From a virus (taxonomy: Duplodnaviria > Heunggongvirae > Uroviricota > Caudoviricetes), in IMG/VR virus record IMGVR_UViG_2537561991_000021: 44,504 bases of DNA; one strand, 5' to 3'. Position 1 is the first letter of the stretch, and every line of letters starts with the position of its first letter. The position numbers and the translations under genes are program-made. Positions 1 to 24,512 of the stretch are shown piece by piece. The notes below the pieces were generated by a model. It saw only the letters and a list, made by a program, of their open reading frames with translations. It ran no database searches and was not told the DNA's origin.

Positions 1-1020
1 GACTTCCGTTATTCTGCCGGATTCGTATAACGCCCGGTAACCACCGTAAGCATCGGCCTGAAGCACACCGCTGTAACCGGCCAGGTGTATTTTTGGTGGA
101 TGGATACCTTTCCGGTCCGGACTGTACGCGAACCAGACCGCCGGGGGCATCTGTGAACCGGCGTTACGGTCATCACGGACGTAGACCCACAGCCGGGCTG
201 TCCGGGTTTTACCGCTGCCCGGCTCCTGGACCGGGACGGGGATATCATCAGCATGGACTTTACCGGGCATCAGCACATACTGGCGCAGGACGTCATACTG
301 CGGCTCCAGTAGTTCAGCAACGGCACCAGTCCAGCGCCCCAGTGTGGCACGGCTCAGCTCCACACCCTGACGGCGGTATATCTCTGACTGGCGGTATAAC
401 GGCAGATGGTCTGCATATTTTCCGGTGACGACATGGGCCAGGAGCCCCGCTCCGGCATAACTGCGTGCAATGGGTTTTGAAGGCACCGGTGCCTGCACGA
501 TATGGTCGCACCGGCAACAGGCCAGTTTCGGACGTTGTGTTTCGATAACCTTAAAGGCGCTGCTGATAAGCTCCAGTTGCTCTGACACATCACATCCCAG
601 AGAACTGAGTTCACCACCACAGGCAGGACAGCATTCCTCTTCCGGCCGGATAACCCGGGTTTCACGGGGAAGTGAGGCCGGTAACGGTTTACGGGCTGAA
701 GACTGGCGCAGGGCGGATGGCAGTACCGGGTCATATTGCTCACCCAGCGTTTCCGCCATTTCTTCCTGAAGTGCGCTGATTCGCTCCTGTGCTTCCTGTA
801 TCTGCCGTTCGGTTTTTGCACGAAGTTTTTCTGAGCTTTTACCGAACTGCATACGTTGCAGTTTCGCAACCAGCGCCTTCAGCCGGTTGATTTCGGAAGC
901 ATAAGCCGCCACCCGCTGTGAGAGCAGGCGGTTGTATTCAGCCATCTGGCGTATGGTGTCCTGTTGCGTCTGCAACAGTGCCCGCAGGCGGGCGTTCTCA
1001 TGAGCAAGTGAGGTGTCCAT
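1..1020 (-). CDS. IS66-family transposase TnpC, N-terminal part (truncated by window edge)
   Basis: Reverse complement of 961..1020 encodes [20 protein letters not shown], matching the start of the 523-aa transposase at 34039..35610. Not in the ORF track because it runs off the window. Confidence 0.8.
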   Translation of the reverse strand, partial: MDTSLAHENARLRALLQTQQDTIRQMAEYNRLLSQRVAAYASEINRLKALVAKLQRMQFGKSSEKLRAKTERQIQEAQERISALQEEMAETLGEQYDPVLPSALRQSSARKPLPASLPRETRVIRPEEECCPACGGELSSLGCDVSEQLELISSAFKVIETQRPKLACCRCDHIVQAPVPSKPIARSYAGAGLLAHVVTGKYADHLPLYRQSEIYRRQGVELSRATLGRWTGAVAELLEPQYDVLRQYVLMPGKVHADDIPVPVQEPGSGKTRTARLWVYVRDDRNAGSQMPPAVWFAYSPDRKGIHPPKIHLAGYSGVLQADAYGGYRALYESGRITEV

Positions 1021-1039
1021 ATCCTCACTTTACAACGGG

Positions 1040-1387
1040 TTATATGCGGATTCCAGCGCGTTCCGTTCGTTTCGGGTGCTTCCAGTTGATACCTTCAAGA
1101 AGCATGGATAACTGAGCCGGAGTAAGGTGCACCTTGCCGTCACGGGTGACTGGCCAGACGAAGCGGCCCCGCTCCAGGCGTTTGGTGAAGAGGCACAGTC
1201 CGTCACTGTCAGCCCACAACACTTTTATCTGGTCACCCCGGCGTCCGCGGAAGATGAACAGGTGTCCGGAGAACGGGTCATCCTTCAGGACGTTCTGAAC
1301 TTTTGATGCCAGGCCGTTAAAACCATTTCGCATATCGGTGATACCGGCAACCAGCCAGATACGCGAACCGGCAGGGAGAGATATCAT
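1040..1387 (-). CDS. IS66 Orf2-like accessory protein (TnpB)
   Basis: 115 aa, identical to the ORF at 33672..34019; sits between orfA and tnpC as in IS66-family elements. Confidence 0.85.
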   Translation of the reverse strand: MISLPAGSRIWLVAGITDMRNGFNGLASKVQNVLKDDPFSGHLFIFRGRRGDQIKVLWADSDGLCLFTKRLERGRFVWPVTRDGKVHLTPAQLSMLLEGINWKHPKRTERAGIRI

Positions 1388-2064
1388 CAGTGGCTGCTCC
1401 CTTTCATTTCGCGGATAAGTGTCTGTAATAACGCCGGCGTCAGTTTACCTTTAAGCCTGAGAGTTCCGGCCGGCAGAATCAGCTCACAACACAGACTGTC
1501 GGACGGTGTATTTATCTGCTCTGGTTCCTGTGCGGGGGCCGGGATTTTATTATCCGGCTCCGGCGTTAACGTCACGGGAAGCAGTACCGGCATATTTTTT
1601 CCGGAAGGCAGCAGGCCACCTTTCCGGTATTGATGGCGCCAGTTGAAGAGCAGGTTATCGTTGATTCCGTTTTCCCGGGCGATCTGCGCCACACAGGCTC
1701 CGGGCTGCAGTGACTGCTCCACTAAGGCGATTTTAAACTCATAAGGGAAGTTGGGCCGCCGGGGACGTTTTTTTATCACGGGGGCTTCGGATATAACGGT
1801 GTTTTCAGGACGTACGACTGGTACCGTGGAAAATTGTCCGTAAAGGCAGGCATCAAGTTCCTGCTCCGACATGCCTGCGGGCAAAGGCCACGAAAGGCCA
1901 GCTCTCCGAAAGCGCACGAACATATTACAAACTGTTGATTTTGGTACACCCAGGCGACGCCCGGCCACAACCCGGGGTAAATGTTCTTCAAAGTGAAGAC
2001 GTAAAGCTTCAGTGATCCAGGTCCGGTGTTTCATACGATAGTGTCCATTAAAAATGATGGACAT
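1387..2064 (-). CDS. IS66-family orfA-like protein with N-terminal HTH
   Basis: 225 aa, about 97% identical to 32995..33672. C-terminal part resembles the short IS66 orfA at 32175..32576 (GINxNLLFxWR). Confidence 0.8.
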   Translation of the reverse strand: MSIIFNGHYRMKHRTWITEALRLHFEEHLPRVVAGRRLGVPKSTVCNMFVRFRRAGLSWPLPAGMSEQELDACLYGQFSTVPVVRPENTVISEAPVIKKRPRRPNFPYEFKIALVEQSLQPGACVAQIARENGINDNLLFNWRHQYRKGGLLPSGKNMPVLLPVTLTPEPDNKIPAPAQEPEQINTPSDSLCCELILPAGTLRLKGKLTPALLQTLIREMKGSSH

Positions 2065-2117
2065 TATTTTTGTAGAGCCGGAGGAAACAGACCAGACGGT
2101 TTAAATGAGCCGGTTAC

Positions 2118-2293
2118 GCTTTATATGAGCCAGGAGCATCTAAACAGGAACATGCCGGGATACCGACACCCACAGCAAGATATTCAGTTGATGTGGAAAT
2201 ATATTCCCGTGTCTCACCATCATAATTGTAAACGGTAATGTCTCCCGCCTTTGTGGTGATGAGTTCGCTATTTAATACAGCTTTATTCATCAT
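2118..2293 (-). pseudogene. tail fiber assembly protein (Tfa), N-terminal fragment truncated by IS insertion
   Basis: Start ATG overlaps the tail-fiber stop (ATGA). Encodes [59 protein letters not shown], typical of a Tfa N-terminus, then runs into the IS end. Confidence 0.6.
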
Positions 2294-3815: not shown

Positions 3816-5011
3816 GACTCCACCGTTATAACGATATTTTCCGGGGTACAGGACGCAGATTCGTTGTATCTGATATCAATGTTTGATGACGACAAAGCCC
3901 CCGGAGATTTCCCAATCGTCAGTTCCTGAATATCGTAATAGCGTGCATTCCCGCCACTCACCACGCCAAGATTCGCCGGTGAGTAAATGCGACTTAAAAG
4001 GACCGAATCACCAATCATCAGACTATTGATATAGTCGGAAATAGCCTGCTGGATCTGCTGCCCTATCTGTGAGGTATAACCCGTAAAAACTTTTAATTTA
4101 ATCCGGGCATAAACAGGCACATCACTGGAACGCGAGAATTTGATTACATGGGGATTGCCGTATTTATCCGGAACCGTAACGGATGTTGTACCGTGAGTGG
4201 CTGTCCCCTGGCCTTTATTCCCTCTGATAGCCTGAGCAATATCCATCACATCACCGCCATCCACAATTACAGCAACAGAGTGTGGCGGTAACCCGTTACC
4301 GTCCTCCGAACCAGTATCGTTTTCATAGAGTTTGTGGCGGGTTACACCGGTAACATTAGAAACAGCACCATCCAGTGCTTCAAATGGGGTTATTGATGGC
4401 AACGCAACACTTTGCGACTGGCGGATACGTAACTCCGCATCAGTTTCTGCCGGAGAGCCAACAGTAGCCGCAGCAGGATTAGTTACCGAAACCCAGCCAC
4501 GGGTTGGCGTATTAATTTCAGTGATAGTTCCAGCCAGCGCCGCCACTGCACCACTGACGGAACATGTTGCGGTCGCCATCACTGTACCATCCACGCCGAC
4601 CACCACTGAAGCAGGCAAACGCCATATCACACTATTACTGTCTTTCACGCTGCCATTAATGATGGTTGTTCCGGCAGTTCCTGTAAGAAGCAAATCAACC
4701 GTAGAATTCGTCGCGCCTTTACGTGAAATACCATTTATTTTCACGTTACTGGTCAGTGCGGCCCCATAGCCGGTTGCCGGTGAAAAACAGTTGTAGACAG
4801 TTATCGCAGTATTATTGGCATCATGAATCGCCAGCGCCATCAGAGCCACCATCTGGCCGTCTTTACTATCCGGTTCGAGGTAGGCATCACTGCCATAAAT
4901 CTGCTGAAAATAGCTAATCAGGGTGCTGAGTATCGTCTGATAATCAGGCGCACTGATCCCCTCCGCGGTTACCTTTGCAGATAAACCGAGAGAATCAAGG
5001 TTCAGAGCCAT
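3812..5011 (-). CDS. baseplate J-like protein (P2 gpJ / Mu gp47-like)
   Basis: 399 aa; size and position in a baseplate cluster; translationally coupled to neighbours. Confidence 0.7.
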   Translation of the reverse strand: MALNLDSLGLSAKVTAEGISAPDYQTILSTLISYFQQIYGSDAYLEPDSKDGQMVALMALAIHDANNTAITVYNCFSPATGYGAALTSNVKINGISRKGATNSTVDLLLTGTAGTTIINGSVKDSNSVIWRLPASVVVGVDGTVMATATCSVSGAVAALAGTITEINTPTRGWVSVTNPAAATVGSPAETDAELRIRQSQSVALPSITPFEALDGAVSNVTGVTRHKLYENDTGSEDGNGLPPHSVAVIVDGGDVMDIAQAIRGNKGQGTATHGTTSVTVPDKYGNPHVIKFSRSSDVPVYARIKLKVFTGYTSQIGQQIQQAISDYINSLMIGDSVLLSRIYSPANLGVVSGGNARYYDIQELTIGKSPGALSSSNIDIRYNESASCTPENIVITVES

Positions 5012-5364
5012 TACGCCTCCGATTTAACAGTCGTTATTCCATAGAGAGTGTCGATTTCAGCGGAAAACATGACACGTCGGGTCGTGGTATCCACCGTCGT
5101 ATTGAAAGAGAGGATTGATTTAACGCCCCGCGTTTCGAGGATGCGCTTACGGATCGCCAGGTTGTAGGTTTCCGGCTTCTGCTTACCGAGCACAGACTGG
5201 ATCCACGGGGTCCCTTCGGTGGTGTCGAGAAACCATTGCCCATACCACAATTCAAATCGCGTTTTTACCGCCTGCGCCACGGCCTCCGGTGAGTTAATCA
5301 GCCAGGTGTCATCACCGCTGCCAAAGGTGTAATCGCCATCGGCGTCTTCACGTCTGTATCGCAT
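5011..5364 (-). CDS. small baseplate protein (Mu gp46 / gp25-like wedge)
   Basis: 117 aa between the spike-like and J-like genes. Confidence 0.55.
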   Translation of the reverse strand: MRYRREDADGDYTFGSGDDTWLINSPEAVAQAVKTRFELWYGQWFLDTTEGTPWIQSVLGKQKPETYNLAIRKRILETRGVKSILSFNTTVDTTTRRVMFSAEIDTLYGITTVKSEA

Positions 5365-6113
5365 CAGTTTACCCTATCGGTATTGCTTCCACCGCGCTGA
5401 ACACCGCCATGAGTGTGCGTATCATCGATTGGCTTGCCGTTAGCCTTCACGCTCCCCAAAAACTCAACAGCACCAGTGATTTTTGAAGCCACACCAGAAA
5501 CCACAGACCCCACCATGCCCCCCATCCAGGTTAACAGGCCATGAATGGTTACTTTCTCAGAAAAATCAGCCAGAGGGGCAACCACATCAAGACCACCCGG
5601 AGCGACAATTTTAATTTTCCTGGTATCAGGATTAAGCTCAAAATAGGTGCTGCCGTCATCACTACGCAACTGTGTGGCACTGGTATTAATACCGCTAATC
5701 CTCCTTGCCTGCGACTGGGGACCGACAATACAAAACGCATCCGATAAATCATGCATTCTGTCATCGACCGTCTCCTGTATCCCGCCACTCTGCCACCAGA
5801 AATCGATGCAGCGATCGGCAAAAATCACCAGGCATTCATCGCCGGCTTTTACCGGGAAAGTTAACGTGCAGCCGCCGCCGCGCGGAAATACCACCGGCAC
5901 ATCCACCAGCAGCGGGTAATTTTTGGTTACGCGGTTGCCGTCGTTGTCGGTTTCAACCGAACGAATAGCAGGCTGCACAACCGCCGTCACCGCGTCAGGA
6001 TCGAATGACTGAACGATGCCAGGCAAAGCGACGCGGATCTGGTTCTTTGTGGTTTCCCGCTCGGATTTGAATGTTTCGGCAAGGTCGCCGCTACGAGTCT
6101 GGTCTGATATGGC
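5364..6113 (-). CDS. baseplate assembly protein V-like (spike)
   Basis: Resembles the gpV/gp45 N-terminal OB-fold region (VKAGDECLVIFADR). ATG at 6113 with an AGGAG RBS; the ORF track's TTG at 6149 lies inside the upstream terminator. Confidence 0.65.
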   Translation of the reverse strand, partial: AISDQTRSGDLAETFKSERETTKNQIRVALPGIVQSFDPDAVTAVVQPAIRSVETDNDGNRVTKNYPLLVDVPVVFPRGGGCTLTFPVKAGDECLVIFADRCIDFWWQSGGIQETVDDRMHDLSDAFCIVGPQSQARRISGINTSATQLRSDDGSTYFELNPDTRKIKIVAPGGLDVVAPLADFSEKVTIHGLLTWMGGMVGSVVSGVASKITGAVEFLGSVKANGKPIDDTHTHGGVQRGGSNTDRVN

Positions 6114-6126
6114 CATTTGATAAACT

Positions 6127-6157
6127 CCTGAAAACAAAAAACCCGCCAAGTGGCGGG
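6127..6157 (-). terminator. rho-independent terminator closing the tail-module cassette
   Basis: Minus-strand hairpin CCCGCC-ACTT-GGCGGG followed by TTTTTTGTTTT. Confidence 0.75.
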
Positions 6158-6178
6158 TCTACAGGAACAACTCTAAGT

Positions 6179-6349
6179 TTATTTTTTCTGTTTAAAATTG
6201 TCCAACTCAGGTTCTTTAACGCTTTCTGTCATGTAATCCAATCCACCAAAAGGTACTTCAAGCATTATACTGCTTTCATAATCAGCCATGGATTGCTCTG
6301 CTTGCGTTGGCTTGCTTTGCTGTGAGTTGTCATTATTTGATGTTGTCAT
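6179..6349 (-). CDS. small hypothetical protein (56 aa), third gene of the cassette
   Basis: ATG-initiated ORF MTTSNNDNSQQSKPTQAEQSMADYESSIMLEVPFGGLDYMTESVKEPELDNFKQKK, below the ORF-track size cutoff; lies between the membrane-protein gene and the terminator. Confidence 0.4.
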   Translation of the reverse strand: MTTSNNDNSQQSKPTQAEQSMADYESSIMLEVPFGGLDYMTESVKEPELDNFKQKK

Positions 6350-6352
6350 CAA

Positions 6353-6907
6353 CTATGCCTTATTTATCAAAAGAAAAGTAACCGATAATATGAAAAAACC
6401 GAAAGATAACGCAATTCCTTCAAAAAGATAACGAGCGTAAACTGCCTTTTCTTTATGAAGACTTTCGATCAATTCAACAGCTTTACCATACTGAAACATA
6501 TGGTATCTAAGCGTTTTAATTTTATCACCGTAAAATAAAAAATCATGCTCTTCTTTTCGCTTATGAATAGGCATTTTTGGTATATCTTTCAGTCCCCAAG
6601 TACGCCATAGGAAAAAAAAGCACATAACAATACAAACAAAGCACAGATATGCACAAAGTATAGATAATGTTAAAAACCAATTACTCTTTAGCCCACTTTT
6701 GAAATCAACAGTCCCAAATACAGCCAGTAGAGCAGAGGTTTCTACAGCTAAAATAGCAAGAAGGTAGTTAACTTTGTCCTCAAGACGACGATATGTTGAT
6801 TTTGCTTCCTCATATCTATCTTTATAATATGACGAAATAAAATCAGCGCCTATAGTCTCAATTGCCTTTTGTTCTTCTGTTGTATCTATTGACGAACGCT
6901 TGCTCAT
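6353..6907 (-). CDS. hypothetical membrane protein, AT-rich accessory gene
   Basis: 184 aa with a charged N-terminal region and hydrophobic helices (LLAILAVETSALLAVFGTV, WFLTLSILCAYLCFVCIVMCFFFLW, GIALSFGFFILSVTFLLI). Much lower GC than flanking tail genes. Confidence 0.7.
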   Translation of the reverse strand: MSKRSSIDTTEEQKAIETIGADFISSYYKDRYEEAKSTYRRLEDKVNYLLAILAVETSALLAVFGTVDFKSGLKSNWFLTLSILCAYLCFVCIVMCFFFLWRTWGLKDIPKMPIHKRKEEHDFLFYGDKIKTLRYHMFQYGKAVELIESLHKEKAVYARYLFEGIALSFGFFILSVTFLLINKA

Positions 6908-6914
6908 TTCTCAA

Positions 6915-7262
6915 TCAACCAACAACTTTCTTACACGGGAAAGAGCCAATAATTTTCGGAGCATCCATGCTGTTCTGCAACAACTGGACGTTCAGGAAAC
7001 GCGTTTTAGTGCCAGGTCGATGGATATACTCGAACCCATAATTGTTGCCATCTTTGGCAGGCATCAGGTCCATTTTGATCTGCATGCCTGTACCGTCTTT
7101 ACCCAACATTTTTACTTTTTGGGACGTTACTGTTTCGCCATTGATTTTAAATAATGAATCAGGGATCGCATCCATACGAAAGTTGCCGCATTGCATCGTT
7201 ATGGTGTTTGCACTTACACCAACAGACACTAATGCCAGCAATGAAAATATCCATCGTTTCAT
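6915..7262 (-). CDS. hypothetical secreted (periplasmic) protein, accessory gene
   Basis: Start at MKRWIFSLLALVSVGVSA, a signal-peptidase-I type signal with no lipobox; two Cys in the mature part. The ATG follows the upstream baseplate gene stop by 2 nt. Confidence 0.65.
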   Translation of the reverse strand: MKRWIFSLLALVSVGVSANTITMQCGNFRMDAIPDSLFKINGETVTSQKVKMLGKDGTGMQIKMDLMPAKDGNNYGFEYIHRPGTKTRFLNVQLLQNSMDAPKIIGSFPCKKVVG

Positions 7263-7264
7263 TT

Positions 7265-8329
7265 CTATAATCCTCTCTGAAAAGCAGTGCTGGATGGCAT
7301 ATCCTGCGCACCGCGCGCTTCGCACATCATATCCATGTACCACGCCTGGCCCCTTGTATCGCCAGTGTACATAATCCCGCGCACAATATAAACGCCATCC
7401 GTTGCGATGCTGGCAGGCTGCGATGTGGTGCCGCTTAGCGTAATATTTCCGTCCGTGTTCTGGTCGGTGATCTGCCCACCAGCCATAGCGATATCGTTGT
7501 TCGACAACGCGGTGCGATATACGGAAGCCTGATCCAGTTGAATGAGCCCATTAACCCGGATGTTCGGATTAATAAGCGCGCGAACGTTTACGCCGTTGCC
7601 GATGGTCTGCTGCGGCATGCCAATAAGCCCGGTAGCGCTGTTGAGCACAATCGCTTCGTGAACATATTCATTATTCGCCACCATCTGGCGCTGACCGTCT
7701 ACGAATTGCCATGTTGCGCCACATTGCCCGGCTACGTTATCCATTAGATGCCGCGTCATGCCAAAGAGCACCCGCCCCCGGGGGAATACAGTAGCAGGCA
7801 TTTCAGGCGTCAGGCCTTCGGTCGCACCTTTGGCTTCGAAGTCTTTCATCAGCGCACGGTTCACATCAGCGACCGTGTAACCGGCAGCCAGCGTCTGTGA
7901 GGTTATACTGGTGGCAAAAGCCAGATCAGTATCTGCTGCCTGAATCAGGACGTAGGAATCAACCGGACTGTCTTTTCCTGTAACCGAGTAGCGAATTTCA
8001 CCGCTGAAAATCAGTCCGTAGTTGCGGCCATCACTCTGGCCCACGTCCGCCGCATCAACCTCCCGCACGATCCCGACGTCGCTTGCCGACACCTCCGGCG
8101 CGATACCGTCGTAACCCGCAATCAGACGCACTTTCGAAAACTCCCGCCCGGTGATTCGGTTCACAGTATCTGCCGAGAGGTTATAAATTTTGATAGTCCC
8201 TACCCGGGACGCGCTGCTGATGTTGAACCAGTCGATCGTAAAGGTCACTTTAAAATCACTTAGCTCAATTCCCTGACCGTTCCCGTCCACAAGCTGCAGC
8301 TCGAAATGTCTCATCCAGTTCTGTGACAT
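7265..8329 (-). CDS. baseplate hub-like / tail protein
   Basis: 354 aa in the tail cluster between the tape measure and the spike; assigned by position only. Confidence 0.55.
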   Translation of the reverse strand: MSQNWMRHFELQLVDGNGQGIELSDFKVTFTIDWFNISSASRVGTIKIYNLSADTVNRITGREFSKVRLIAGYDGIAPEVSASDVGIVREVDAADVGQSDGRNYGLIFSGEIRYSVTGKDSPVDSYVLIQAADTDLAFATSITSQTLAAGYTVADVNRALMKDFEAKGATEGLTPEMPATVFPRGRVLFGMTRHLMDNVAGQCGATWQFVDGQRQMVANNEYVHEAIVLNSATGLIGMPQQTIGNGVNVRALINPNIRVNGLIQLDQASVYRTALSNNDIAMAGGQITDQNTDGNITLSGTTSQPASIATDGVYIVRGIMYTGDTRGQAWYMDMMCEARGAQDMPSSTAFQRGL

Positions 8330-8331
8330 GC

Positions 8332-8634
8332 TTACTCCGTTGATACCAGTAAATGGCTGCGACCGCCCAGGTCAGTTTTTGTGGGGTAATCCTGTGTGTT
8401 GTCATCACAGACCACCACCAGCTTAAAACCAAGCCCCATACAGGCGTACTGCGCCAGCAGGTCAGCACCAGTGACGAGAGGAATACCGGAGATTACCGGC
8501 TCCCCTCTGTCGTTCTGCAGGTCCATAATCCAGTACAGATCGCGCCATATGATGCTAATCCGCCAGGTAACACCACCCAGGACGATGCTGAACTGCTGGT
8601 TGTCCGCTGTCAGCGGAATTTCCTGAATTGCCAT
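8332..8634 (-). CDS. small tail protein
   Basis: 100 aa, translationally coupled inside the tail cluster. Confidence 0.5.
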   Translation of the reverse strand: MAIQEIPLTADNQQFSIVLGGVTWRISIIWRDLYWIMDLQNDRGEPVISGIPLVTGADLLAQYACMGLGFKLVVVCDDNTQDYPTKTDLGGRSHLLVSTE

Positions 8635-9221
8635 TAGCCGCCCCCCAGTAATGACGCCACGTTACCCGTGATGCTTTTCAGCAGTGAAGTATCTGGAGGC
8701 TTGGTGGTTTTGTTGCCGCTGTTCTGTACCGCCGACGTGCTGGCCCCTTCCTTCATGTTGGTTTTATCCGCGACGGAAATCTGCTGTGTCCGGGAGATAA
8801 GGACCTCCCTCAGGGTGAGGACGGCGGACAGGACGTTTTCGGTTGTCTTGTCCGTCGTCACTTCCAGCGCCCGGATCAACATGTTGCTGTACAGTCGTTT
8901 ACCGGTTACCACATCGAAGGGGATACGGCTTTCCTGCAGATCCAGTAGCTCCTGATACGTCTGCTGAGGACTCAGGCCGAGCAGGCTGGTAGCCGTCAGG
9001 TTACTGGCAAAATCCAGCAATGCGCCACCACCGGCGAAACCAACCTCCATCACCACTTCTGACGGTTTTTTATAGGCATGATCAGCGACAGCGGCCCCGA
9101 CCTCTACCGGATGCTCTGTTATTTCAAGCATATCTGTATGCTTCTCTGAAATAACAACACAGGGAACAATCATTCCTATTTTTCTGCTCTGCTGATGAAA
9201 AAGTGTAGAGAGAATATCCAC
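8634..9221 (-). CDS. tail protein following the tape measure
   Basis: 195 aa; probable GTG start overlapping the tape-measure stop. Confidence 0.5.
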   Translation of the reverse strand: MDILSTLFHQQSRKIGMIVPCVVISEKHTDMLEITEHPVEVGAAVADHAYKKPSEVVMEVGFAGGGALLDFASNLTATSLLGLSPQQTYQELLDLQESRIPFDVVTGKRLYSNMLIRALEVTTDKTTENVLSAVLTLREVLISRTQQISVADKTNMKEGASTSAVQNSGNKTTKPPDTSLLKSITGNVASLLGGG

Positions 9222-11209
9222 TAACCCACCCTCACCTGATTACTTCGCATGACCTGAGCATTTGCAGACTGTTGCCGACGTGCAACCTCATTACCGACAG
9301 CGTGCGGATCTCCACCACCGTAAATGTGGTAGGTATTTTGCTGGTTAACCTCTGTCACTTTGCCACTAATTCCCGCCACGGCAGCCTTATTAATCAGCTC
9401 CCGAGAATAGATATTTCTTCCATTCTCATGCTGGATAATGCTGCTCATCAATGCTGACATGGTTTGCGGATCGCTCATATTCAGGGCAGCCCGGGGATCC
9501 ACTCCCAGTCGTTGCGATACAGCCCTGATATACGCAGTTGTGTTGTTATTATCAGACGCAGGTGCCCAGGTAGAGATAATTTTCTCCACACTGTTTATTC
9601 CCCGTCCGGCGTACAGCATTAACTGACGAGCAAGAGCCCGTAATCCATCAAAAGCAGTTTCAAATCTGGCAAATCGCCCGCCCGGGCGTTCAAGAGAAGC
9701 CCCTGCCTGACCAGCAAAATTAAGGTTTCCCGGATTGTTATTCCGTTCTCCTCGTTTCGTAGCCTGTGCATGTTGTTCCGGCTCATCATCACCAAACCAG
9801 CCGCGTACCGTCCGGCCCACACTGCGGGGATCGAATCCCCAGTGCTCTTTAATCCAGTCGGCAGTACTGTTAGCGCTGTCTGTAACCATCGGCATCGCTG
9901 ACGGATTTTCGCTGCCCTGATTAAGTATCTGTTTGCCGATGCTGACGGCATCAGCCCAGCGGCCATCTTTGATAGCGTTGAGCAGGTCGGCGATCATGTT
10001 CAGCATTTTGCTGAATTCGCCCATCTGGTCGATGAAGTTGCTGAAATCCCACTTCAGGGACCATGATTTGGGGTCAATATTGAGCAGTTTCGCCAGCGCT
10101 TTCACCAGGTCGTTAACGGTCGTTTTAAGGTCACGAACCATCTTCAGCGCGGCATCGACCTCCGGTTTCCACTTGCCCCAGTCAATCAGGCTGTCGCCGC
10201 CTTCCTTCCAGGTCTGATAGTCCTCCCACAGGAGGGCAATACCCGCCGCCAGCGCGGTAATGAGGCCAATCGGCGACATCCAGAACGTACTGTTCAGAAT
10301 GCGCAGCGCAATCGTCAGTGCGCCAAACAGCGAGATCAACTCCCGCGTTTGCTTATCCAGCGATTGCCACCAGGTGATAAGGCCTGATGTCCCCTCAATC
10401 AGTCTGAAGAACAGCCGCCCGATAATATCCCCGAGCGCCAGAATGCCTTTTATGGCTTTCGTCAGGGTCTGCTCGATACGAGGGAAGTTGTCCAGGATAT
10501 GGCGGCGCAGGGTGTCCAGCGAACCCGCAAGCCCCCCCGCAAGATTAGAGCCGATTTTGTCACGGGCCATGCCTGCCATCGCGCCAAACTCACGCAGGGA
10601 GGTCATAAATTTGTTGGAGCTTCTGGCCGCCTCGTCAGCATTGAAGCCGATAGCTTTCGCCATTGCGCTGTACTGCCCGGAGAAGCCACCCACACCCCGG
10701 CGCATCGCCATAAGGGTATTTTCGTCAATGCCCAGCATCTGCGCATACTGGTTAGCCCGGTAATACGGCATGCTGCTGAGTTTCTGTCCAACGCCCGTAA
10801 AAATAGCGGCCATGTCACGCATGTTACCGCTGGCATCACGGGTCTGTACGCCCAGGCGATTCAGAAAGCCTTCTGCACCGGGATTGTTACGAATAAACCG
10901 GGATAGGCTTTCCAGAGAAGATCGCGCAGCGTCCACGCTGCCGCCAACCTGCGAAACCGCATAGCCAATAGACTGAATTCCCTGGACTGTCGCGCCGGTG
11001 CGCTGTGACGCCCAGTAAAGATTATCCAGGCCGGAGGCGATCTTAGCCGTGAAGGCCACCACGGACAACGCAGCTCCTTCAACAGCCAGCCCCATTTTGA
11101 TGACATTTGCAGTTGTACCGGCGAGGACAGAACCGAACTTTTTCGCTCCTGCATCATCCACACTGAAGCCAAGCGAGACGAGGAAATCTTTAATAGTTTC
11201 AGCGTTCAT
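9221..11209 (-). CDS. tail tape measure protein
   Basis: About 660 aa, Ala/Gly-rich with predicted helical regions, downstream of the chaperone. ATG at 11209 with a GGAGAGAGG RBS. Confidence 0.85.
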   Translation of the reverse strand: MNAETIKDFLVSLGFSVDDAGAKKFGSVLAGTTANVIKMGLAVEGAALSVVAFTAKIASGLDNLYWASQRTGATVQGIQSIGYAVSQVGGSVDAARSSLESLSRFIRNNPGAEGFLNRLGVQTRDASGNMRDMAAIFTGVGQKLSSMPYYRANQYAQMLGIDENTLMAMRRGVGGFSGQYSAMAKAIGFNADEAARSSNKFMTSLREFGAMAGMARDKIGSNLAGGLAGSLDTLRRHILDNFPRIEQTLTKAIKGILALGDIIGRLFFRLIEGTSGLITWWQSLDKQTRELISLFGALTIALRILNSTFWMSPIGLITALAAGIALLWEDYQTWKEGGDSLIDWGKWKPEVDAALKMVRDLKTTVNDLVKALAKLLNIDPKSWSLKWDFSNFIDQMGEFSKMLNMIADLLNAIKDGRWADAVSIGKQILNQGSENPSAMPMVTDSANSTADWIKEHWGFDPRSVGRTVRGWFGDDEPEQHAQATKRGERNNNPGNLNFAGQAGASLERPGGRFARFETAFDGLRALARQLMLYAGRGINSVEKIISTWAPASDNNNTTAYIRAVSQRLGVDPRAALNMSDPQTMSALMSSIIQHENGRNIYSRELINKAAVAGISGKVTEVNQQNTYHIYGGGDPHAVGNEVARRQQSANAQVMRSNQVRVG

Positions 11210-11386
11210 TATCCTCTCTCCATTTCTCAATGCGTCGCTGGTTATCCGCTTTTACCGCCAGATGGTCATTCAAGAGAGCAATGTCATACAAATCGACAGA
11301 GCCATCTTTAAGTGCTGTATAAGGAATTAACCCGGCGTCAACCGGATTGAGAAGGTAGGACAGCCCGTCCGGCAGGCTGTTAAACG

Positions 11387-11839
11387 TCAGCCCTGTTGCA
11401 GGCTCTGCGTCGTGCTGGTAAGGGGTGTAGGCAAAAAATTTCCCAGCGAATCGGCGACCACCCGCGCCACCAGCTGCAGCATGACCAGCAAGTCAATATC
11501 ATCAAACATCAGTTCGCCCTGGGTAAATACCGGCACCCATCCGTCCATATGACGCCGCGATACCACCGCAAGACAGGGATGAATAATCGCATCGGTGTCA
11601 TCTTCGGTCAGGGAAGACAGTTCCTCAGCGATACGCGGGAGCATGGTTTCAAACACCGGTTTTAACTGTTCGAATTTCACGGTGTCGATTTTGCCGTCAG
11701 CAGGCAAACGGGAGCGAATACTCCCGAAATCTGACATCATTCCTGCCAGCACCGGCAGAAGTTTGCGGGTCACTTTCAGCTGGTCAAAAACGCTGAGTTT
11801 TGCCGTGCGATATTTCACGCCTTTAATTTCGAATTCCAT
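11387..11839 (-). CDS. tail assembly chaperone (zero-frame product)
   Basis: 150 aa between the tube and tape-measure genes; followed by an open -1 frame (see findings). Confidence 0.75.
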   Translation of the reverse strand: MEFEIKGVKYRTAKLSVFDQLKVTRKLLPVLAGMMSDFGSIRSRLPADGKIDTVKFEQLKPVFETMLPRIAEELSSLTEDDTDAIIHPCLAVVSRRHMDGWVPVFTQGELMFDDIDLLVMLQLVARVVADSLGNFLPTPLTSTTQSLQQG

Positions 11840-11842
11840 GCA

Positions 11843-12283
11843 TTAAAACTCCCCGAGAACCTGGTCAATCTTGCCGCAGTCAAACACCCACGGCATCGTA
11901 TTACCGGTTTTAGCGTTGGCGTTATCCGGTTGTTTCTGGAACGCAACACTGCGTGCCGTGATGATGTCGCCGCTGACCTTGTTGCGGATCACGATAACGT
12001 TATTCCCCCATGTGGCAGAAGACTGGCTCTGTGCGTTATACGCCAGCGACAATTTTTTATTTGTCGGTGATGTCTTCAGAAGGTTAACGGTAATCGTCCC
12101 GCTTTTATCTGCATGGAGACTGTGCATCACTTCGCCATCAGCACCGATGGTCATGGTGTTTTTAGGACCGCCCATCGCAACCACAATCCCCTCTTCAGAA
12201 CTTGCCGAACCGTACCCGAGGTCAATCGAACCTGTCGGCCCGGTCAGCGTCGCAGTGACATCCATAAAAGAATAGGTAGACAT
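11843..12283 (-). CDS. tail tube protein
   Basis: 146 aa immediately downstream of the sheath gene. Confidence 0.7.
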   Translation of the reverse strand: MSTYSFMDVTATLTGPTGSIDLGYGSASSEEGIVVAMGGPKNTMTIGADGEVMHSLHADKSGTITVNLLKTSPTNKKLSLAYNAQSQSSATWGNNVIVIRNKVSGDIITARSVAFQKQPDNANAKTGNTMPWVFDCGKIDQVLGEF

Positions 12284-12293
12284 TCACTTCCCC

Positions 12294-13439
12294 TTAGCGA
12301 ACAACGTTAATCTGTACGTCAGCGTAATGAACCGCGCCTGCAAGTTTTATTGCAGCCTGAATCACCGGAGCCTTACGGGCTTCACGTTCTGATTGAGCCT
12401 GTTCATCCAGCGGCTGAGCGTATACGTAATAACCTTTGGGCAGTGTGTCACCTGATGACAACTGACCAAGGTCGCCCCCGTTCCATACGCCCGGAGCAAT
12501 CAGTCCATTCTGAACGGCCTGATCCAGTGATTTTTCAACATTTGATAACAGTCGGGTAATACCGGCTTCAGTCTGGGGAACTTTCGTGGTGCTGGTATAA
12601 AGCAGGTTATAGAGGTTGGTCTGCACATAATTCTGTAACCAGTCCAGGCCGTGGCGTTCATCAAAGAAATCGCCGTTAGCCATCACTCCCTGCTGGAGGA
12701 TAGCCGTATCATTCTGGTAGTACACGAATACATTGCAGTTTTTTGCATCAAGTGCCGATGCCTGGCTGACTGTCAGTGTTTCATACCCGATACCCGGCTC
12801 CTGCTTAAACTTGAGCGTAATCGCGGTATTACTGCCATTGAAATTAACCGTGAATGCCCGGCCAAATGCAGATAACGCAGCGTATTTATTACCCGATGAA
12901 TACTGAATAAAACTGCGTGAATATCCGGCGGTTTTCAGTTTTGATGCCAAATCATCGCTGGATGCAGTCTGCAGGCATTTCTCATCGCTTGTCGTAATCG
13001 CCAGAATACGGCTTACAGAAGAGGATTCGATCGCCGCAGCCACTTTCAGCCAGTCTGCATCCTGAATATCTTCATCGTCTGCAATCCCCAGCCCATACCA
13101 TGAAGTATAATCAAGCATGGCATTCACAGCCTGCTCCAGCGTCTCAGGCGTGGCCTGTTCGCTGTCTCCCTTCGTTTTCACCCAACGACCAACAAAAACC
13201 TCCTGAGGTTTCGGTGATTGAGAGAAAAACACCTGCGCAGCCTTATATTCTGGTGATTCCACGCCAAAATCTTTTCCAATATCTTCCGCGGCAGAATAAC
13301 GGCGAATGCGCTCACTTACCGGAATGATTGTGGACGGGCCGAGAATGAGTAATGCACCAAAATTTCGCCCTGATGCTGCACGCGGCGACATGATCACATC
13401 AACATTAACAACGTTTGATACAGGCAAGCCCTGTGCCAT
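12294..13439 (-). CDS. contractile tail sheath protein
   Basis: 381 aa upstream of the tube/chaperone/tape-measure set. Confidence 0.7.
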
Positions 13440-13442
13440 AGC

Positions 13443-14006
13443 TTAATCTCCGAAAAAGATGACTGGTGCATCCACCAGCGATTTAATACCGTACTCGCGC
13501 ACAACCTTCCGGCGCAGGCGCACCGTCATATCGTAGCGGCGGACCCATTGCTGATTAATAAGTTCAGGGAAGGGAGTCAGACCTGTGTAATCGCCAAGAG
13601 ACAGCCCCAGCGCATTCAGTGCTGCATTGTTCTGCGGCACAGATATACCGTCACGAAACCGGGACGCATACACCATCCCCGCCGGTCCATAAAACGAAGC
13701 CATACACTCAATCGTTTCATGCCGCCAGAGCTGAGAGCCATCATCGGTCTGTCTGGTGAATGCCGGACTGTCATCACCTGACCATCCGATAACCCCAAAC
13801 GCACACCAGTTCGTTTCAACCGGTAGCAGTGGCGGCTGCTCTTTCTGCCAGCGCGGGCGAACCATCCCGGCAGACAGACCGGAAACGTTACGTATCCACT
13901 GGCTTAACAGCCTGTCGAGCGCTTCGTCATAATCCGGATCGCCACTGGTTGGTATTAACCATCCGCGCTCTGTACTGGTGTTATTGCTCAACCGGAGTTC
14001 CCCCAT
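13443..14006 (-). CDS. head-tail joining / tail completion protein (hypothetical)
   Basis: ATG at 14006; position between the head and tail modules. Confidence 0.45.
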   Translation of the reverse strand: MGELRLSNNTSTERGWLIPTSGDPDYDEALDRLLSQWIRNVSGLSAGMVRPRWQKEQPPLLPVETNWCAFGVIGWSGDDSPAFTRQTDDGSQLWRHETIECMASFYGPAGMVYASRFRDGISVPQNNAALNALGLSLGDYTGLTPFPELINQQWVRRYDMTVRLRRKVVREYGIKSLVDAPVIFFGD

Positions 14007-14370
14007 CAAACGGCATCAACTCACAATGCGCCTGAACGAATCCGGCCCCATAAGCTGTATACGGGTCGACGAAGGTCACACGGTAATCACGGCCCTGATA
14101 CGTCACGATATCGGCATCACGGCCAGTCTGTCCCTGCGTCAGTCGCTCAGTCGTCACAATCAGAATTGCACCACTGATTACCTGCCCGGCCTGCATACGA
14201 CGGTTTTCCAGAGAGCGATCAACAGTAACGACTCCGGCAAACTGCTTTTTAACTTCGCTGTCGCTGCCGATTCCGTCCTCATCCACCGTTTGCACACGGC
14301 GTGTTACCCACAAATTGAAGTCGCAAAAATCGGGGTCAAAAAGCACATCTGTTACATCAAGAGTCGGCAT
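13981..14370 (-). CDS. head-tail connector protein (hypothetical)
   Basis: 129 aa, coupled to neighbours in the connector region. Confidence 0.45.
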   Translation of the reverse strand: MPTLDVTDVLFDPDFCDFNLWVTRRVQTVDEDGIGSDSEVKKQFAGVVTVDRSLENRRMQAGQVISGAILIVTTERLTQGQTGRDADIVTYQGRDYRVTFVDPYTAYGAGFVQAHCELMPFDGGTPVEQ

Positions 14371-14911
14371 CTTTATCCCTCACTACATGGGTAATAGCTC
14401 TGCGATATTGCCCGGTGTCAATTAATGGTTTCGCCAGATCGGTTCCGGGAGATTCGCCAGCAACACGCCGGGCAAGTTCCAGTGTTGCCCCCTTGCACCC
14501 CCGACGAGCCCGGGCTTCAACAGTACTGTCAGCAAGCGGCGTAAAGCCGGTAATGGTCATGTAACGCCTGACGCCATTAACGGCCAGCGTTCCGGCACGG
14601 TTGAGTGCACTTTCTGCTCCCGCAGCATTACCATCAAGTGCAGCCTGCGCCGCGGCTTTAAGCTGCGGCACCGTCTGCTCTTCTGCCGATTTAACGCCGG
14701 GGACCAGGTGAGGTCGTGGCGGGATGTTCTGCTCTGGTGAGCCGTATTCGTTGAGGTAACCGATGCCCGCATTACCAAACGGAACATCATCCCGTTCGCT
14801 GTCTTCCGAAGGGATGCCGACCAGCACATCTTTTTTGGTTAACGACCTGAGCGCATCCAGAATGGCCTTAGCGTTATCCACCCTCGTTGTTACACCGCTT
14901 TTGAAACTCAT
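14357..14911 (-). CDS. virion morphogenesis / head completion protein (hypothetical)
   Basis: 184 aa; ATGA overlap with the upstream stop. Confidence 0.45.
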
Positions 14912-15315
14912 AGCTGGCGACCGCCTGCACCGAACATCGTGATCAACTGATAAAATTCAGCGCCATATCGGGTGTTATTCCAGAAACCTGCATCAGGATT
15001 CAGCGTCGCGCTGGTGTCATAGCTGACGCTTACCTTATCCACGGACTTTGAGGACTGAACACCATTGGTTGAACCGCCCGGACCACCAGCCAGCATCGCT
15101 CTGCTGTCAGCCGCCCAGAGCGTCATGTAGTGAGCAACGAACAACCCGGCAAAGTACGGAAACAACTTTTTGCCGGTGACATTTTCGCTCAGCAGTTCAT
15201 CGGCCAGATTCAGACGGAACCCGATTTGGGCGTCGGGATATTTTGCCGGGTCAGCAAACTGCGGGAAGTCGCGGCGAAAATCACTTACCGCTGGCAGACT
15301 TTGATTCTTTGACAT
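14908..15315 (-). CDS. head-tail connector protein (hypothetical)
   Basis: Start tentatively at [10 protein letters not shown]; the ORF track extends upstream with a non-ATG start. Confidence 0.45.
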
Positions 15316-15649
15316 CTTTAGCCCCATTACCGCCAGTCCGGGCGGCAGTAATCTGCGCCTGCAGGCTGTCGTTCTGCTCCTGCAGTTTGAGCAATGCATC
15401 TTTAAGATCGGCAATCAGCTTATCTTTGTCGGCAATCTGCGCTTGCAGGCCGTCGATAATGGGTTGCAGATCATCGGTGTCGCTAATCACGCTTTCGGAA
15501 AGCTCAGAGTGCGCCTGGGTGAACCAGTGCGACGCGACCTCTTCCGGTACGTTATGCCGTCCCCGGCCAAACTCCTGTTTTGACTGATCGCCGAGCGTCA
15601 GCGTAAACGGGGTGTGAACATGGATGGTAACCAGCTTTTCTTTCGCCAT
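15281..15649 (-). CDS. small phage structural-module protein with coiled-coil C-terminus
   Basis: ATG at 15649 ([12 protein letters not shown]) preceded by an AAGGAAA RBS; the longer ORF-track version would read through the hairpin after the capsid gene. Confidence 0.5.
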
Positions 15650-15663
15650 TTCAGTTTCCTTCA

Positions 15664-15679
15664 GGCCCCTTTCGGGGCC
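15664..15679 (-). promoter_or_regulatory. stable stem-loop immediately after the major capsid gene
   Basis: Perfect GGCCCC-GAAA-GGGGCC hairpin 10 nt after the capsid stop, with no U-tract. Confidence 0.5.
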
Positions 15680-15689
15680 ATTCTGGTTA

Positions 15690-16631
15690 TCAGATACCGT
15701 CCACATAGGACAGAGTTTCTTTATACACTGGCTCGACTGCACCCAGCTTGCCGTAGTAAGTGACGATCTGATACAGGCCGCGATACTGCACCGGCACGCT
15801 CTGAAGCGGAACCAGCGGGTAGCGGACGTATTTTTTATCGTTGGTGTACGCAACCATGCGATCCTTATTCCCCACACCACGGCCTTTCAGCCATTTAACC
15901 GCGCGGATATTCAGCGGAACACCGTTCTGGTGATAGCTGATGGTGTTGGTCTGAAGGTACGTCAACAGGGACTGGTTACCCGCAGATGAAACGATGATGC
16001 TGGACAACAGAGCAAACTGTTCAGGCGGGATCAGCAAATCACGCGGGACCACAGAGTAACCAGAAGCGGCCCACGCATCAGACAGCACCTGGTTAATGCT
16101 TGCGCGGATTTCGTCCGGTGTTGAGGTTGCCCACGTTTTGGCAGCGTTGTTGACAGGCACGCCGTCCAGGGTAACAAGGCCTTTCAGGTTTAATGCGGAA
16201 TCGCCAACATATACCTGTTCATCGTTATCCATCTGCCATTTCAGTTGCATCCCGTCATACTTCTGCGTATCAATCGGGCGGCCGACCTGCTGAGCAGCCT
16301 GCAATTCTATGACCGTCCAGCCAAGTTCCATCCCCCACAGGTTCAGCGGGTTACCGGATTTGCCGGTATCCACGTTCACGCCAGCAATAGCGGTTGAGTC
16401 TTTGCCTACCCAGTTTTTGCCATTCGGATTTGCACCAGTACCCGCAGCGGCGAAGCTGGTATTCGTCCAGCTGGAAATGTCATCTGCGATAGAGACATCT
16501 TCACGCAACTGAATATCGCGGGTCCAGGTGTACCCCACCAGTGGCAGGTTCAGCGTCTGGTCGAGTCGCTCCAGCTCCCCGATGAGAAAGGCACCAGAGC
16601 TGTCAACGGTTGCCTGATCAAAAGTAATCAT
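15690..16631 (-). CDS. major capsid protein
   Basis: 313 aa, downstream of the scaffold and a small structural gene, followed by a strong hairpin. Confidence 0.7.
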   Translation of the reverse strand: MITFDQATVDSSGAFLIGELERLDQTLNLPLVGYTWTRDIQLREDVSIADDISSWTNTSFAAAGTGANPNGKNWVGKDSTAIAGVNVDTGKSGNPLNLWGMELGWTVIELQAAQQVGRPIDTQKYDGMQLKWQMDNDEQVYVGDSALNLKGLVTLDGVPVNNAAKTWATSTPDEIRASINQVLSDAWAASGYSVVPRDLLIPPEQFALLSSIIVSSAGNQSLLTYLQTNTISYHQNGVPLNIRAVKWLKGRGVGNKDRMVAYTNDKKYVRYPLVPLQSVPVQYRGLYQIVTYYGKLGAVEPVYKETLSYVDGI

Positions 16632-16642
16632 TCGTCTGTTCC

Positions 16643-17149
16643 TTAAATCTTCCAGGAAATTTCTGCATTGCCGTTAGCATCACCGGCACCTGTGAATTCA
16701 GCGTTGGTCAGCACCACATTTTTGCCACTGACTGACGTGGACATGAATCCACCCAGCGGCACTTTGATGGATTCATCAGTGGAGACGACAACGTATACCG
16801 GGTCGCCTTTTTTGATAGTGCTGGCATCAAAATCAGAACCGAGATTAACGGTCACGTAGCCACGCTTCATGGCGTCGCCCGGGAAGTTCTTGCCTGTTCC
16901 CACCTGGCGAACCATGTCCGGCTGCGACGTGGTCGGATAAGGGCGCACGTAGATCCCCTTCACCTTGTCTGCGGTATCACCATCTGCCAGCGGCACGAAA
17001 AAACCGTCATCATCGTATTTACCAGCCAGCCCATAGGCAGCGAAGGCGTTATCGGATTTAAGGACCACCGGTTCGACGGTTAAGTCCTGCGGGCGAGAGA
17101 CAGCCCCGGCAATACCAACAGGCATCCGGTACAGAAATACATTATTCAT
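16643..17149 (-). CDS. head structural / decoration protein
   Basis: 168 aa between the scaffold and capsid genes. Confidence 0.5.
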   Translation of the reverse strand: MNNVFLYRMPVGIAGAVSRPQDLTVEPVVLKSDNAFAAYGLAGKYDDDGFFVPLADGDTADKVKGIYVRPYPTTSQPDMVRQVGTGKNFPGDAMKRGYVTVNLGSDFDASTIKKGDPVYVVVSTDESIKVPLGGFMSTSVSGKNVVLTNAEFTGAGDANGNAEISWKI

Positions 17150-17152
17150 TTT

Positions 17153-18373: not shown

Positions 18374-18387
18374 GTGTTACCTGCGAT

Positions 18388-22101: not shown

Positions 22102-22103
22102 AC

Positions 22104-22676: not shown

Positions 22677-22737
22677 TTTATTTTCCAGTTATCAGGTCAT
22701 TATCGAAGCCCCTCCTGGAAGAGCTTCTGTAATGCTA

Positions 22738-23722: not shown

Positions 23723-23725
23723 GAA

Positions 23726-24067: not shown

Positions 24068-24163
24068 ACTTCCCACCTCCGCCATTACGGGGTGTTGTTG
24101 AAAGGCGGGCCCTGCGTATACGCCCGTAGGATTGGGTTATGAGCCGTCCTTCGGTGGGCCCTG

Positions 24164-24191
24164 AATACAAAAAAAGTTCGCCATAGCGAAC
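24164..24191 (-). terminator. rho-independent terminator in the Q-to-holin region
   Basis: Minus-strand hairpin GTTCGC-TATG-GCGAAC followed by TTTTTTTGTATT. Confidence 0.65.
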
Positions 24192-24445: not shown

Positions 24446-24512
24446 TCTTCGTGATGAACTGTTTTCAACAGATATCAGGCTAATCGGCTTTTTGGAATTC
24501 CACAACTATTTT

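Follow-up and report, generated by a model that had tools for sequence, protein, structure and literature searches.

Extra DNA that lies between genes adjacent in related phages, brings its own promoter and terminator and is expressed from the repressed prophage is known, after Hendrix and Juhala, as a moron (PMC3594210). The same article describes gene 15 of phage HK97 (Juhala et al. 2000; Cumby et al. 2012) as a tail-operon moron with its own terminator, coding for an inner-membrane exclusion protein. Membrane proteins of another kind are represented by PycTM, described as an effector of abortive infection that forms pores and responds to cyclic pyrimidines as its activators (PMC11224242). 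The 44,504-nucleotide (nt) stretch analyzed here (IMG/VR virus record IMGVR_UViG_2537561991_000021, hereafter the window) carries, between the baseplate hub gene and the central spike gene of a tail operon, three small genes, which we call A, B and C, followed by an intrinsic terminator. P2/P4 anti-phage hotspots, reportedly described by Rousset et al. in 2022, are said to occupy fixed prophage and satellite positions. Tail-operon morons, prophage cargo hotspots and two-transmembrane (2TM) effectors are already known kinds. Three features appear to be new: a hub-spike junction that serves as a docking site with a resident terminator, an allelic exported family at its first position, and a PycTM/SLATT-like protein whose partner is a micro-protein and not an enzyme of nucleotide signalling. 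The reading that we favour, and to which we give an even chance, is that the junction holds two adjacent accessory positions in a Q-antiterminated late tail operon, and that the second is a moron-type slot occupied in the window by a candidate membrane-acting anti-phage pair, B+C.

The features of the junction are as follows.

7265..8329, minus strand: baseplate hub gene, the conserved left flank (phrog_196 baseplate hub, 7.8e-89)
6915..7262, minus strand: gene A, 115 amino acids (aa), predicted to be exported; its ATG lies 2 nt past the hub stop codon
6353..6907, minus strand: gene B, 184 aa with three hydrophobic helices; its ATG lies 7 nt past the A stop
6179..6349, minus strand: gene C, 56 aa with 10 D+E against 5 K+R; its ATG lies 3 nt past the B stop
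~6161..6914, minus strand: exchangeable cargo slot, limited by the A stop codon and the terminator hairpin
6130..6160, minus strand: intrinsic (Rho-independent) terminator, a 9-bp stem (6 GC) at 6160..6139, then a T-run
5364..6116, minus strand: central spike gene, the conserved right flank (start at 6113 or 6116; Pfam spike N-terminal domain, 6.7e-44, plus a GpV Apex motif)

Much of the anatomy given in the preliminary description of this stretch was borne out. Three tightly packed minus-strand genes of 115, 184 and 56 aa do lie between hub and spike (gaps of 2, 7 and 3 nt), and a strong terminator, a 9-bp hairpin with a T-run (z = -3.55), stands directly upstream of the spike gene. A is a signal-peptide protein, with the signal peptide and two invariant cysteines kept in its family, and B is a predicted inner-membrane protein. 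A composition sharply different from that of the tail genes had also been claimed. This holds for B (GC 0.337; GC3 0.25 vs 0.61 in the hub) and C (0.368), and does not hold for A, which at 0.425 is intermediate (hub 0.543, spike 0.527). Since A has 386 homologous clusters and B 12, and C stands behind every B homologue examined, the three are real genes and not chance open reading frames (ORFs).

Measured against the definition of a moron, B and C are extra DNA, whereas A is so only relative to distant non-enterobacterial hub-bearing phages; GC is deviant in B, C and A, and the hairpin at 6160..6139 corresponds to the terminator of its own. Like the HK97 gene 15 moron, this is extra DNA of deviant GC among conserved tail genes, absent from relatives and provided with a terminator, in a late operon that would be read through in lytic growth, and with a small, predicted inner-membrane product. 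Unlike it, the locus shows no promoter that we could find, its cargo comprises two genes, and B has no similarity to gp15/YebO. A further difference is that the docking site is fixed and takes many unrelated cargoes in series, the terminator belonging to the site.

The preliminary description had treated A, B and C as one cassette and one system, a view that did not survive the comparison of relatives. In 39 matching E. coli genomes the whole cassette was present in 21/39 and only the gene-A part in 18/39. At 90% identity the A family comprises 386 clusters, spread across Enterobacterales, vs 12 for B. We compared the junction in 21 genome loci and 13 viral contigs (designated below by L numbers). 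B and C were absent from most relatives, the phage isolates of the collection included. In L042, B and C are 98% identical to those of the window, vs 66% for A and 68% for the spike. The tract of high identity (90-100%) in L042 runs from ~7000 to ~5800 and covers the A 3′ end, B, C, the terminator and the spike N-domain, with 56-64% identity beyond both sides, which is the signature of an exchange by homologous recombination in conserved flanks. Because A occurs without B and C in most relatives, stands beside the spike in empty slots, and is found as diverse alleles next to B and C, we conclude that there are two adjacent and independent accessory positions. A contig considered as an independent Mu-like context of A-B-C (L015, Logan contig SRR25209402_75) was rejected as such: it is chimeric or degenerate, and the gene order of the junction from hub to spike is preserved in it. 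Its fragments follow one another as portal gene, 3′ end of the hub, A-B-C, terminator, the first 51 codons of the spike and then Mu-like tail genes, so that we are dealing with a misassembly or with a prophage that has undergone heavy rearrangement.

The second position behaves as an exchangeable slot. Homology detected by blastn to relatives with other cargo ends at 6915-6927, that is, at the A stop, and at 6147-6160, inside the terminator; in such relatives the hub remains 95-99% identical. The slot is empty in L020, L025-L028 and L034, where the order is hub-A-spike and A lies 25-78 bp from the spike. Elsewhere it is occupied by 408-1834 bp of unrelated cargo, the GC of which is always 0.34-0.45. 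At least ten unrelated AT-rich cargoes were found across the slots of the relatives:

the B+C pair
a diverged 186-aa B-like protein with a 65-aa partner (L017; hhalign probability 96%, E 5e-9)
soluble proteins of 170 or 173 aa
a 266-aa protein
a 138-aa membrane-anchored protein
a 243-aa plus 142-aa pair (L007, L024; no Pfam or PADLOC match)
a DUF2335 membrane protein
secreted ~245-aa proteins with a tRNA_anti-like OB-fold domain (L030, L032, L037; PF12869, 1.1e-15)
small secreted proteins
a reverse-strand 121-aa gene

The earlier view of the genes as accessory rather than virion parts agrees with this picture, and the comparison of related prophages that it had recommended showed that presence of the cassette varies at the junction, many relatives carrying A only, another cargo or an empty slot. 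Swapping of the cargo by homologous recombination in its flanks, the A 3′ end on one side and the terminator with the spike N-domain on the other, is the best explanation of these observations. The slot resembles the P2/P4 hotspots in its conserved flanks, high turnover and AT-rich cargo that includes membrane proteins and toxin-like pairs; it differs in lying inside a SEN34/Brunovirus-like baseplate operon, between hub and spike, and in that no cargo matched PADLOC 2023. By eye, the 142-aa protein of L007/L024 has an N-terminal helix of HEPN-like type (AISRAYYGMYHSA). The tRNA_anti-like domain is an odd one for an exported prophage protein.

The terminator has the sequence ACCCGCC-ACTT-GGCGGG followed by TTTTTTGTTTT, and lies immediately upstream of the spike ribosome-binding site. 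It is the sole terminator-like match in 5000..8500 and the best in 5600..25500, and its RNA folds with -20.2 kcal/mol, a value that none of 200 shuffles reached (0/200). The arrangement ACCCGCC-loop-GGCGGGTTTTTTGCTTTCTGGAGCC immediately precedes the spike start in nearly every locus that bears cargo, irrespective of its kind; the exception is Yersinia phage YP3 (L002), which bears cargo and has a weaker hairpin only. In L032 (GGCCGC...GTGGCC) and L019 the stem has varied in a compensatory manner and is still complementary. Where A directly adjoins the ribosome-binding site of the spike, which is so in five loci (L025-L028, L034), there is no hairpin. The hairpin is thus kept with cargo, compensated where it varies and absent without cargo, and we conclude that it is a selected feature of the occupied slot and not private to B+C. 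This corrects the earlier attribution of the terminator to the cassette itself.

A strong terminator in front of the spike gene had been taken to mean that it is leaky or that the downstream genes need a promoter. The window offers a third answer, antitermination of the lambda type, for which these features are relevant.

24885..25307, minus strand: Q-family antiterminator (PF06530 Phage_antitermQ, 5e-42, full model length)
24173..24194, minus strand: tR′-like intrinsic terminator, a 9-bp stem then TTTTTTGT, between Q and the holin gene
23726..24085, minus strand: holin gene, after the tR′-like terminator

On one strand the order is Q, the strong terminator at 24194..24173, holin, endolysin, terminase, head and tail. 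An order of Q, terminator, then lysis, head and tail genes is the lambda pR′-tR′ arrangement, and Q-modified polymerase reads through intrinsic terminators. Therefore neither leakiness nor a second promoter is needed for the spike, baseplate and fibre genes. The late promoter and the qut site should lie within 24195..24884. If the late transcript passes the terminator unaffected, the latter makes sense only where transcription independent of Q reaches the slot. No better argument is available, indirect as it is, that the slot cargo may be expressed outside the lytic programme. In a separate observation, the RNA fold of 6120..6180 (minus strand) has an outer stem in which UUCCUG, upstream of the hairpin, pairs with CAGGAG, the spike Shine-Dalgarno sequence; the spike ribosome-binding site could thereby be sequestered in a terminated or unprocessed transcript, and the pairing could be due to chance.

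We turn to the cargo of the window. The AlphaFold2 (AF2) model of B has a predicted local distance difference test (pLDDT) score of 80.5 and contains helices at residues 21-66, 77-104 and 129-183. The layout is a long N-terminal amphipathic helix leading into a first transmembrane (TM) segment, TM1, then TM2, a basic cytoplasmic helical segment and TM3. The positive-inside distribution suggests an inner-membrane protein with its N-terminus in and its C-terminus out, and a cytoplasmic bundle would be made up of the N-terminal helix and residues 105-160. Invariant residues cluster just before TM1, in YxxxRYxE......YxRLEDKxN, where RLEDK is invariant. A profile of the B family, searched against 1.84 billion representatives, retrieved 78 proteins at E <= 1e-3, with whole-library E values down to 4e-14 for proteins of ~165 aa; most are of 160-190 aa and aligned end to end. 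In an alignment of 58 sequences (A3: B and 57 remote proteins), 18/58 matched the PADLOC PycTM models (best 1.1e-8, full length), 7/58 the NCBIfam model SLATT_1 (best 1.2e-6), and a few the CARF-TM effectors. Because SLATT_1 matches occur in these seven relatives and none in B, the link of B to SLATT is transitive only, at the level of the superfamily. B is remotely similar to the PycTM/SLATT pore-forming effectors, and on sequence grounds would belong to the same remote superfamily.

With the PycTM, SLATT, CBASS-2TM and CARF-TM effectors B shares a length of ~160-185 aa, carriage on mobile elements, an N-terminal amphipathic helix leading into a TM hairpin and then a C-terminal helix, together with weak, repeated full-length hidden Markov model (HMM) matches, direct and through intermediates. 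It differs from them in having no PycC, CD-NTase, CARF or other nucleotide-signalling partner, in having as partner a cytoplasmic micro-protein of 34-65 aa, and in failing the curated Pfam and NCBIfam models. A tblastn search with B against 50,697 phage records gave no match at E <= 1e-3, and B is therefore unrelated to any superinfection-exclusion (Sie) protein encoded in those records. Since its only detectable outside relatives are PycTM/SLATT-like, a mechanism of effector type is favoured. The literature on PycTM that we retrieved deals only with canonical cyclase-linked systems, and searches of the Protein Data Bank (PDB) with the A and B profiles returned nothing relevant. The PHROG families of A, B and C are all of "unknown function".

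C is acidic and has no hydrophobic segment. The alignment of nine orthologues begins at the N-terminus with a polar stretch of low complexity, continues with the motif YExxIMxxVPFGxL...TES[H/Y] and ends in a basic tail, and C is predicted to be a cytoplasmic, disordered micro-protein. A small ORF stands behind every B homologue examined, either separated from it by a few bases or overlapping it by 4 nt. The distant relatives of B in L051, L053, L055, L056 and L058 also have a tightly coupled small ORF, of 34-54 aa, and a signature of hydrophobic residues, TES and an aromatic residue recurs in several distant partners (KVVTESY in L017; QIVTESY in L056, in an uncalled ORF). These remote pairs sit in mobile or defence-like contexts. 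In L055 (5001..5701) a remote B-like gene (P0141) with an overlapping 53-aa partner lies beside Tn7-like tnsD/tnsC/tnsB genes, at the cargo end of the transposon, and the neighbours in L051 and L056 are UvrD, SocA_Panacea or RelA_SpoT genes. We propose tentatively, as something more doubtful than probable, that B+C belongs to an undescribed and widespread two-gene membrane class, in which a SLATT/PycTM-like effector is controlled by a TES[Y/F/H] micro-protein of 34-65 aa in place of a nucleotide second messenger, and which travels as cargo of the tail slot, of Tn7-like elements and of hotspots resembling defence islands. As a separate part of this tentative proposal, the hub-spike junction of SEN34-like phages would be a dedicated docking site, where any cargo could be inserted and expressed thanks to the resident terminator and the homologous flanks while the Q-driven tail operon stays undisturbed.

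Gene A has a different history. Its N-terminus, MKRWIFSLLALVSVGVSA|NT, is a typical signal peptide for signal peptidase I (SPase-I), which leaves a mature protein of ~97 aa. The signal peptide and the cysteines C25 and C110 (precursor numbering) are invariant in 30 homologues, and there is no lipobox. The AF2 model is a small all-beta barrel (pLDDT 82.7), and A is predicted to be a Sec-exported, disulfide-bonded small beta-barrel. A homologue of A follows the hub in 18 of the ~21 phage records in which hub identity is at least 50%; Hafnia phage yong1 lacks A, as do hub-bearing phages at a greater distance. The preliminary description had named homologues of all three genes at this position in every related tail module, with demonstrated structural roles in the virion, as a finding that would speak against it: homologues of A are almost always there, and those of B and C are not. 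Mature A is 98, 77 or 66% identical to that of the window in loci whose hub, plug, Dit and sheath initiator keep an identity of 95-99%. Being exported and fast-diversifying, A is therefore not a tail part. It most plausibly acts in the cell envelope, where it would exclude incoming phages or interfere with them.

Two loci show other solutions at the A position. In Klebsiella aerogenes (L011, 4098..4988) a 296-aa lipoprotein with the lipobox SATGC has the A domain as its C-terminal 90 aa, and in Serratia (L013, 4147..4821) an unrelated 224-aa lipoprotein with the lipobox FLSSC replaces A, with B+C behind it. A is small, exported and phage-encoded like T4 Sp (spackle), Cor of phi80/N15 and T5 Llp, and lipoproteins stand at its position elsewhere; it has no sequence similarity to Sp, Cor, Llp or PliC/MliC. 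At the level of the fold, the closest matches of A are the PliC/MliC periplasmic lysozyme inhibitors, with avidins and Cap15 scoring equally well or better, the barrel topology being a common one. Comparison of the A model with predicted structures of viral proteins (BFVD) gave no meaningful match, and tblastn of A against phage records found only its own family beside hub genes. The 124-aa slot cargo of L033 was considered as a possible paralogue of A (hhalign probability 33%). Covariation of A with the tape-measure C-terminus or the spike tip amounted to the general phylogenetic correlation, which is not informative. The tape-measure proteins of relatives have an SLT lytic transglycosylase domain or annotation; that of the window (9221..11209, minus strand) has no Pfam SLT match, and its C-terminal part looks conserved (NNPGNLNF...).

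A protein identical to A, WP_000832849.1, is named "STY1065/STY2022 family phage-derived protein" by PGAP in NZ_CP193497.1, an assembly of the 2020s; older assemblies label A hypothetical. A scan of NCBIfam release 20.0 found no model for a STY1065/STY2022 family, and the name may come from a rule outside that library. Literature searches for STY1065/STY2022 and for the three WP_ accessions returned nothing relevant, and a transcriptome paper on ST64B does not cover the hub-spike junction.

Taken together, the favoured reading would work as follows. At the first position A, a long-standing and fast-diversifying resident of the junction, would act in the envelope, with lipoprotein substitutes or fusions in other lineages. 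The second position would be the slot between the A 3′ end and the conserved terminator with the spike N-terminal domain. In lytic growth the Q-modified RNA polymerase would ignore the slot terminator, and spike, baseplate and fibre genes would still be made; any Q-independent transcription of the cargo, such as might occur in the lysogen, would end at the terminator and leave the downstream tail genes insulated. C would be made in step with B, use its VPFG...TES[Y/H] motif to bind the bundle of helices that B has in the cytoplasm, and set the activity of B, for instance as a labile inhibitor or as a trigger-sensing subunit. Upon infection by another phage, the putative trigger, B would permeabilise or depolarise the inner membrane and the infection would be aborted.

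A number of observations weigh against this reading, and its weakest link is transcription. No sigma-70-like promoter with at least 9/12 matches was found upstream of A or B on the coding strand. The best candidate seen by eye, TTGCAG-17-GAAAAT inside the A 3′ end, has only 7/12, and synonymous sites in the A 3′ end show no excess conservation of the kind that an embedded element would leave. Because A, B and C are packed tightly behind the hub, their expression could be late only. As to B, none of A, B and C passed a curated threshold in Pfam, NCBIfam or PADLOC; B has no match to Pfam PycTM (PF18967) or SLATT even at E <= 10, and none to any NCBIfam model, SLATT_1-4 included. The direct PADLOC matches of B, to PycTM (PDLC02365, E 2.6e-4, 19.3 bits, residues 31-140 to positions 8-109 of a model of 165) and to the CBASS 2TM effector (7e-3), are weak and fall on transmembrane segments, where composition can inflate scores. 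There is no cyclase near B in the window or beside any homologue examined, and no other sensor nearby. Finally, of the cargo in other slots, Pfam and PADLOC recognised only the DUF2335 and tRNA_anti-like proteins and no defence family.

The alternative that survives best is classical superinfection exclusion, the mechanism that the preliminary description had proposed; we regard it as unlikely. B would block the channel or tape-measure step of DNA entry by related phages without killing the cell, as HK97 gp15 and P22 SieA do (PMC3594210), with A helping from the periplasm and C as an accessory. The half of that proposal which concerns location stands, A being exported and B a predicted inner-membrane protein. 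The tail-operon site, beside genes for products that penetrate the envelope, is where such a function might be expected, and HK97 gp15 offers a precedent, as a tail-operon moron that blocks genome injection (PMC3594210). The A alleles diversify as in an arms race, and the lipoproteins at the A position in L011 and L013 are reminiscent of Cor and Llp. The other half, that A and B form a pair, fails against the genetic independence of A from B and C. B lacks kinship to known Sie proteins, a class to which P22 SieA, T4 Imm and Sp, HK97 gp15, Cor and Llp belong, in the phage records searched, its only remote relatives are effector-type TM proteins, which also occur outside phages with the same kind of tiny partner, and it is not obvious what an acidic partner in the cytoplasm would do in a passive block of entry.

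It is also conceivable, and in our judgement improbable, that the genes act in lytic growth only, from the Q-dependent late transcript, and protect the producer or its progeny (against re-adsorption or lysis from without) or modulate the membrane before lysis. The short gaps between hub and A, A and B, and B and C, and the failure to recognise a promoter upstream of A or B, are what such genes would show, and in empty-slot phages A has no terminator behind it and hence is co-transcribed with the spike. Against this, the cargo is AT-rich, horizontally exchanged and optional, and a terminator that is linked to cargo, conserved and compensated would be pointless if the transcript were antiterminated at all times.

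Very improbable, as we see it, is a selfish role of B+C as a toxin-antitoxin (TA)-like addiction pair, with B as membrane toxin and C as labile antidote and with loss counter-selected. The coupled two-gene architecture with a small, disordered, acidic partner and the mobility across prophages and Tn7-like elements would suit such a pair. The slot changes its content readily, as is seen from relatives in which it is empty or differently filled, and many prophage TA systems act as defences, so that this explanation is not cleanly separable from the favoured one, an anti-phage B+C pair. That A, B or C is a virion or tail-assembly component is hardly credible, in spite of their place inside the baseplate cluster and of the presence of A beside the hub in most enterobacterial relatives, given that A, with its cleavable signal peptide and invariant cysteine pair, leaves the cytoplasm where tails assemble, that its identity drops from 98% to 66% where that of hub, plug and Dit is at least 95%, that yong1 and the more distant hub-bearing phages do without it, and that B and C are absent from most relatives, phage isolates included.

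If B+C protects lysogens, it would represent a peptide-regulated branch of a superfamily of pore-forming effectors so far known from systems that signal by cyclic nucleotides (Pycsar, CBASS and type III CRISPR), in the form of a compact two-gene system of ~730 bp. The pattern "stop codon of A ... ACCCGCC-loop-GGCGGGTTTTTT-spike RBS" (RBS, ribosome-binding site) can be used to harvest accessory and defence candidates from thousands of enterobacterial prophages. The locus also illustrates cleanly how Q antitermination allows a structural operon to tolerate a terminator inside it. The E. coli that carry it are pathogenic (O103:H2, O55:H7, O45:H2 and enterotoxigenic E. coli (ETEC) H10407), and phage resistance conferred by prophages matters for phage therapy and strain typing.

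The A-B-C cassette is 100% identical in E. coli O103:H2 12009, O55:H7 DEC5B, O45:H2 and other strains, and 99.9% identical in ETEC H10407; it is chromosomal in every matching E. coli genome. In the RefSeq annotation of O103:H2 12009 it belongs to a complete-looking prophage adjoining yfhL/shoB, with integrase, replication module, Q antiterminator, lysis, head and tail genes. The relatives among sequenced phages are vB_EcoM-606R2 with its kin, Yersinia phage YP3 and Salmonella phage SEN34 (Brunovirus). The hub gene has in addition a sub-threshold Pfam match to E217_GP41 (6.8e-5), and genes for a Dit-like protein, plug, sheath initiator and baseplate J surround the hub and spike flanks. The record of O103:H2 12009 shows a frameshifted minor head protein (window ~18388..19123), and the prophage may be defective; the window differs from that record by a 2-nt offset near the Q gene (~24.9 kb) and thus stems from a close relative of this strain, not from the strain itself. 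At 311..2290 the window has a pin/Gin-type recombinase gene (a frameshifted pinE in the O103:H2 12009 record) that adjoins oppositely oriented genes for a tail-fibre tip and tail-fibre assembly, and this region has the look of an invertible switch of host range, of the type known from the Mu G-segment and the e14 P-segment. Further AT-rich islands lie at 36001..36500 (GC 0.284), over DUF4406, VRR-NUC and the start of a methyltransferase gene, and at 40001..41000 (GC 0.35-0.38), over the integrase gene.

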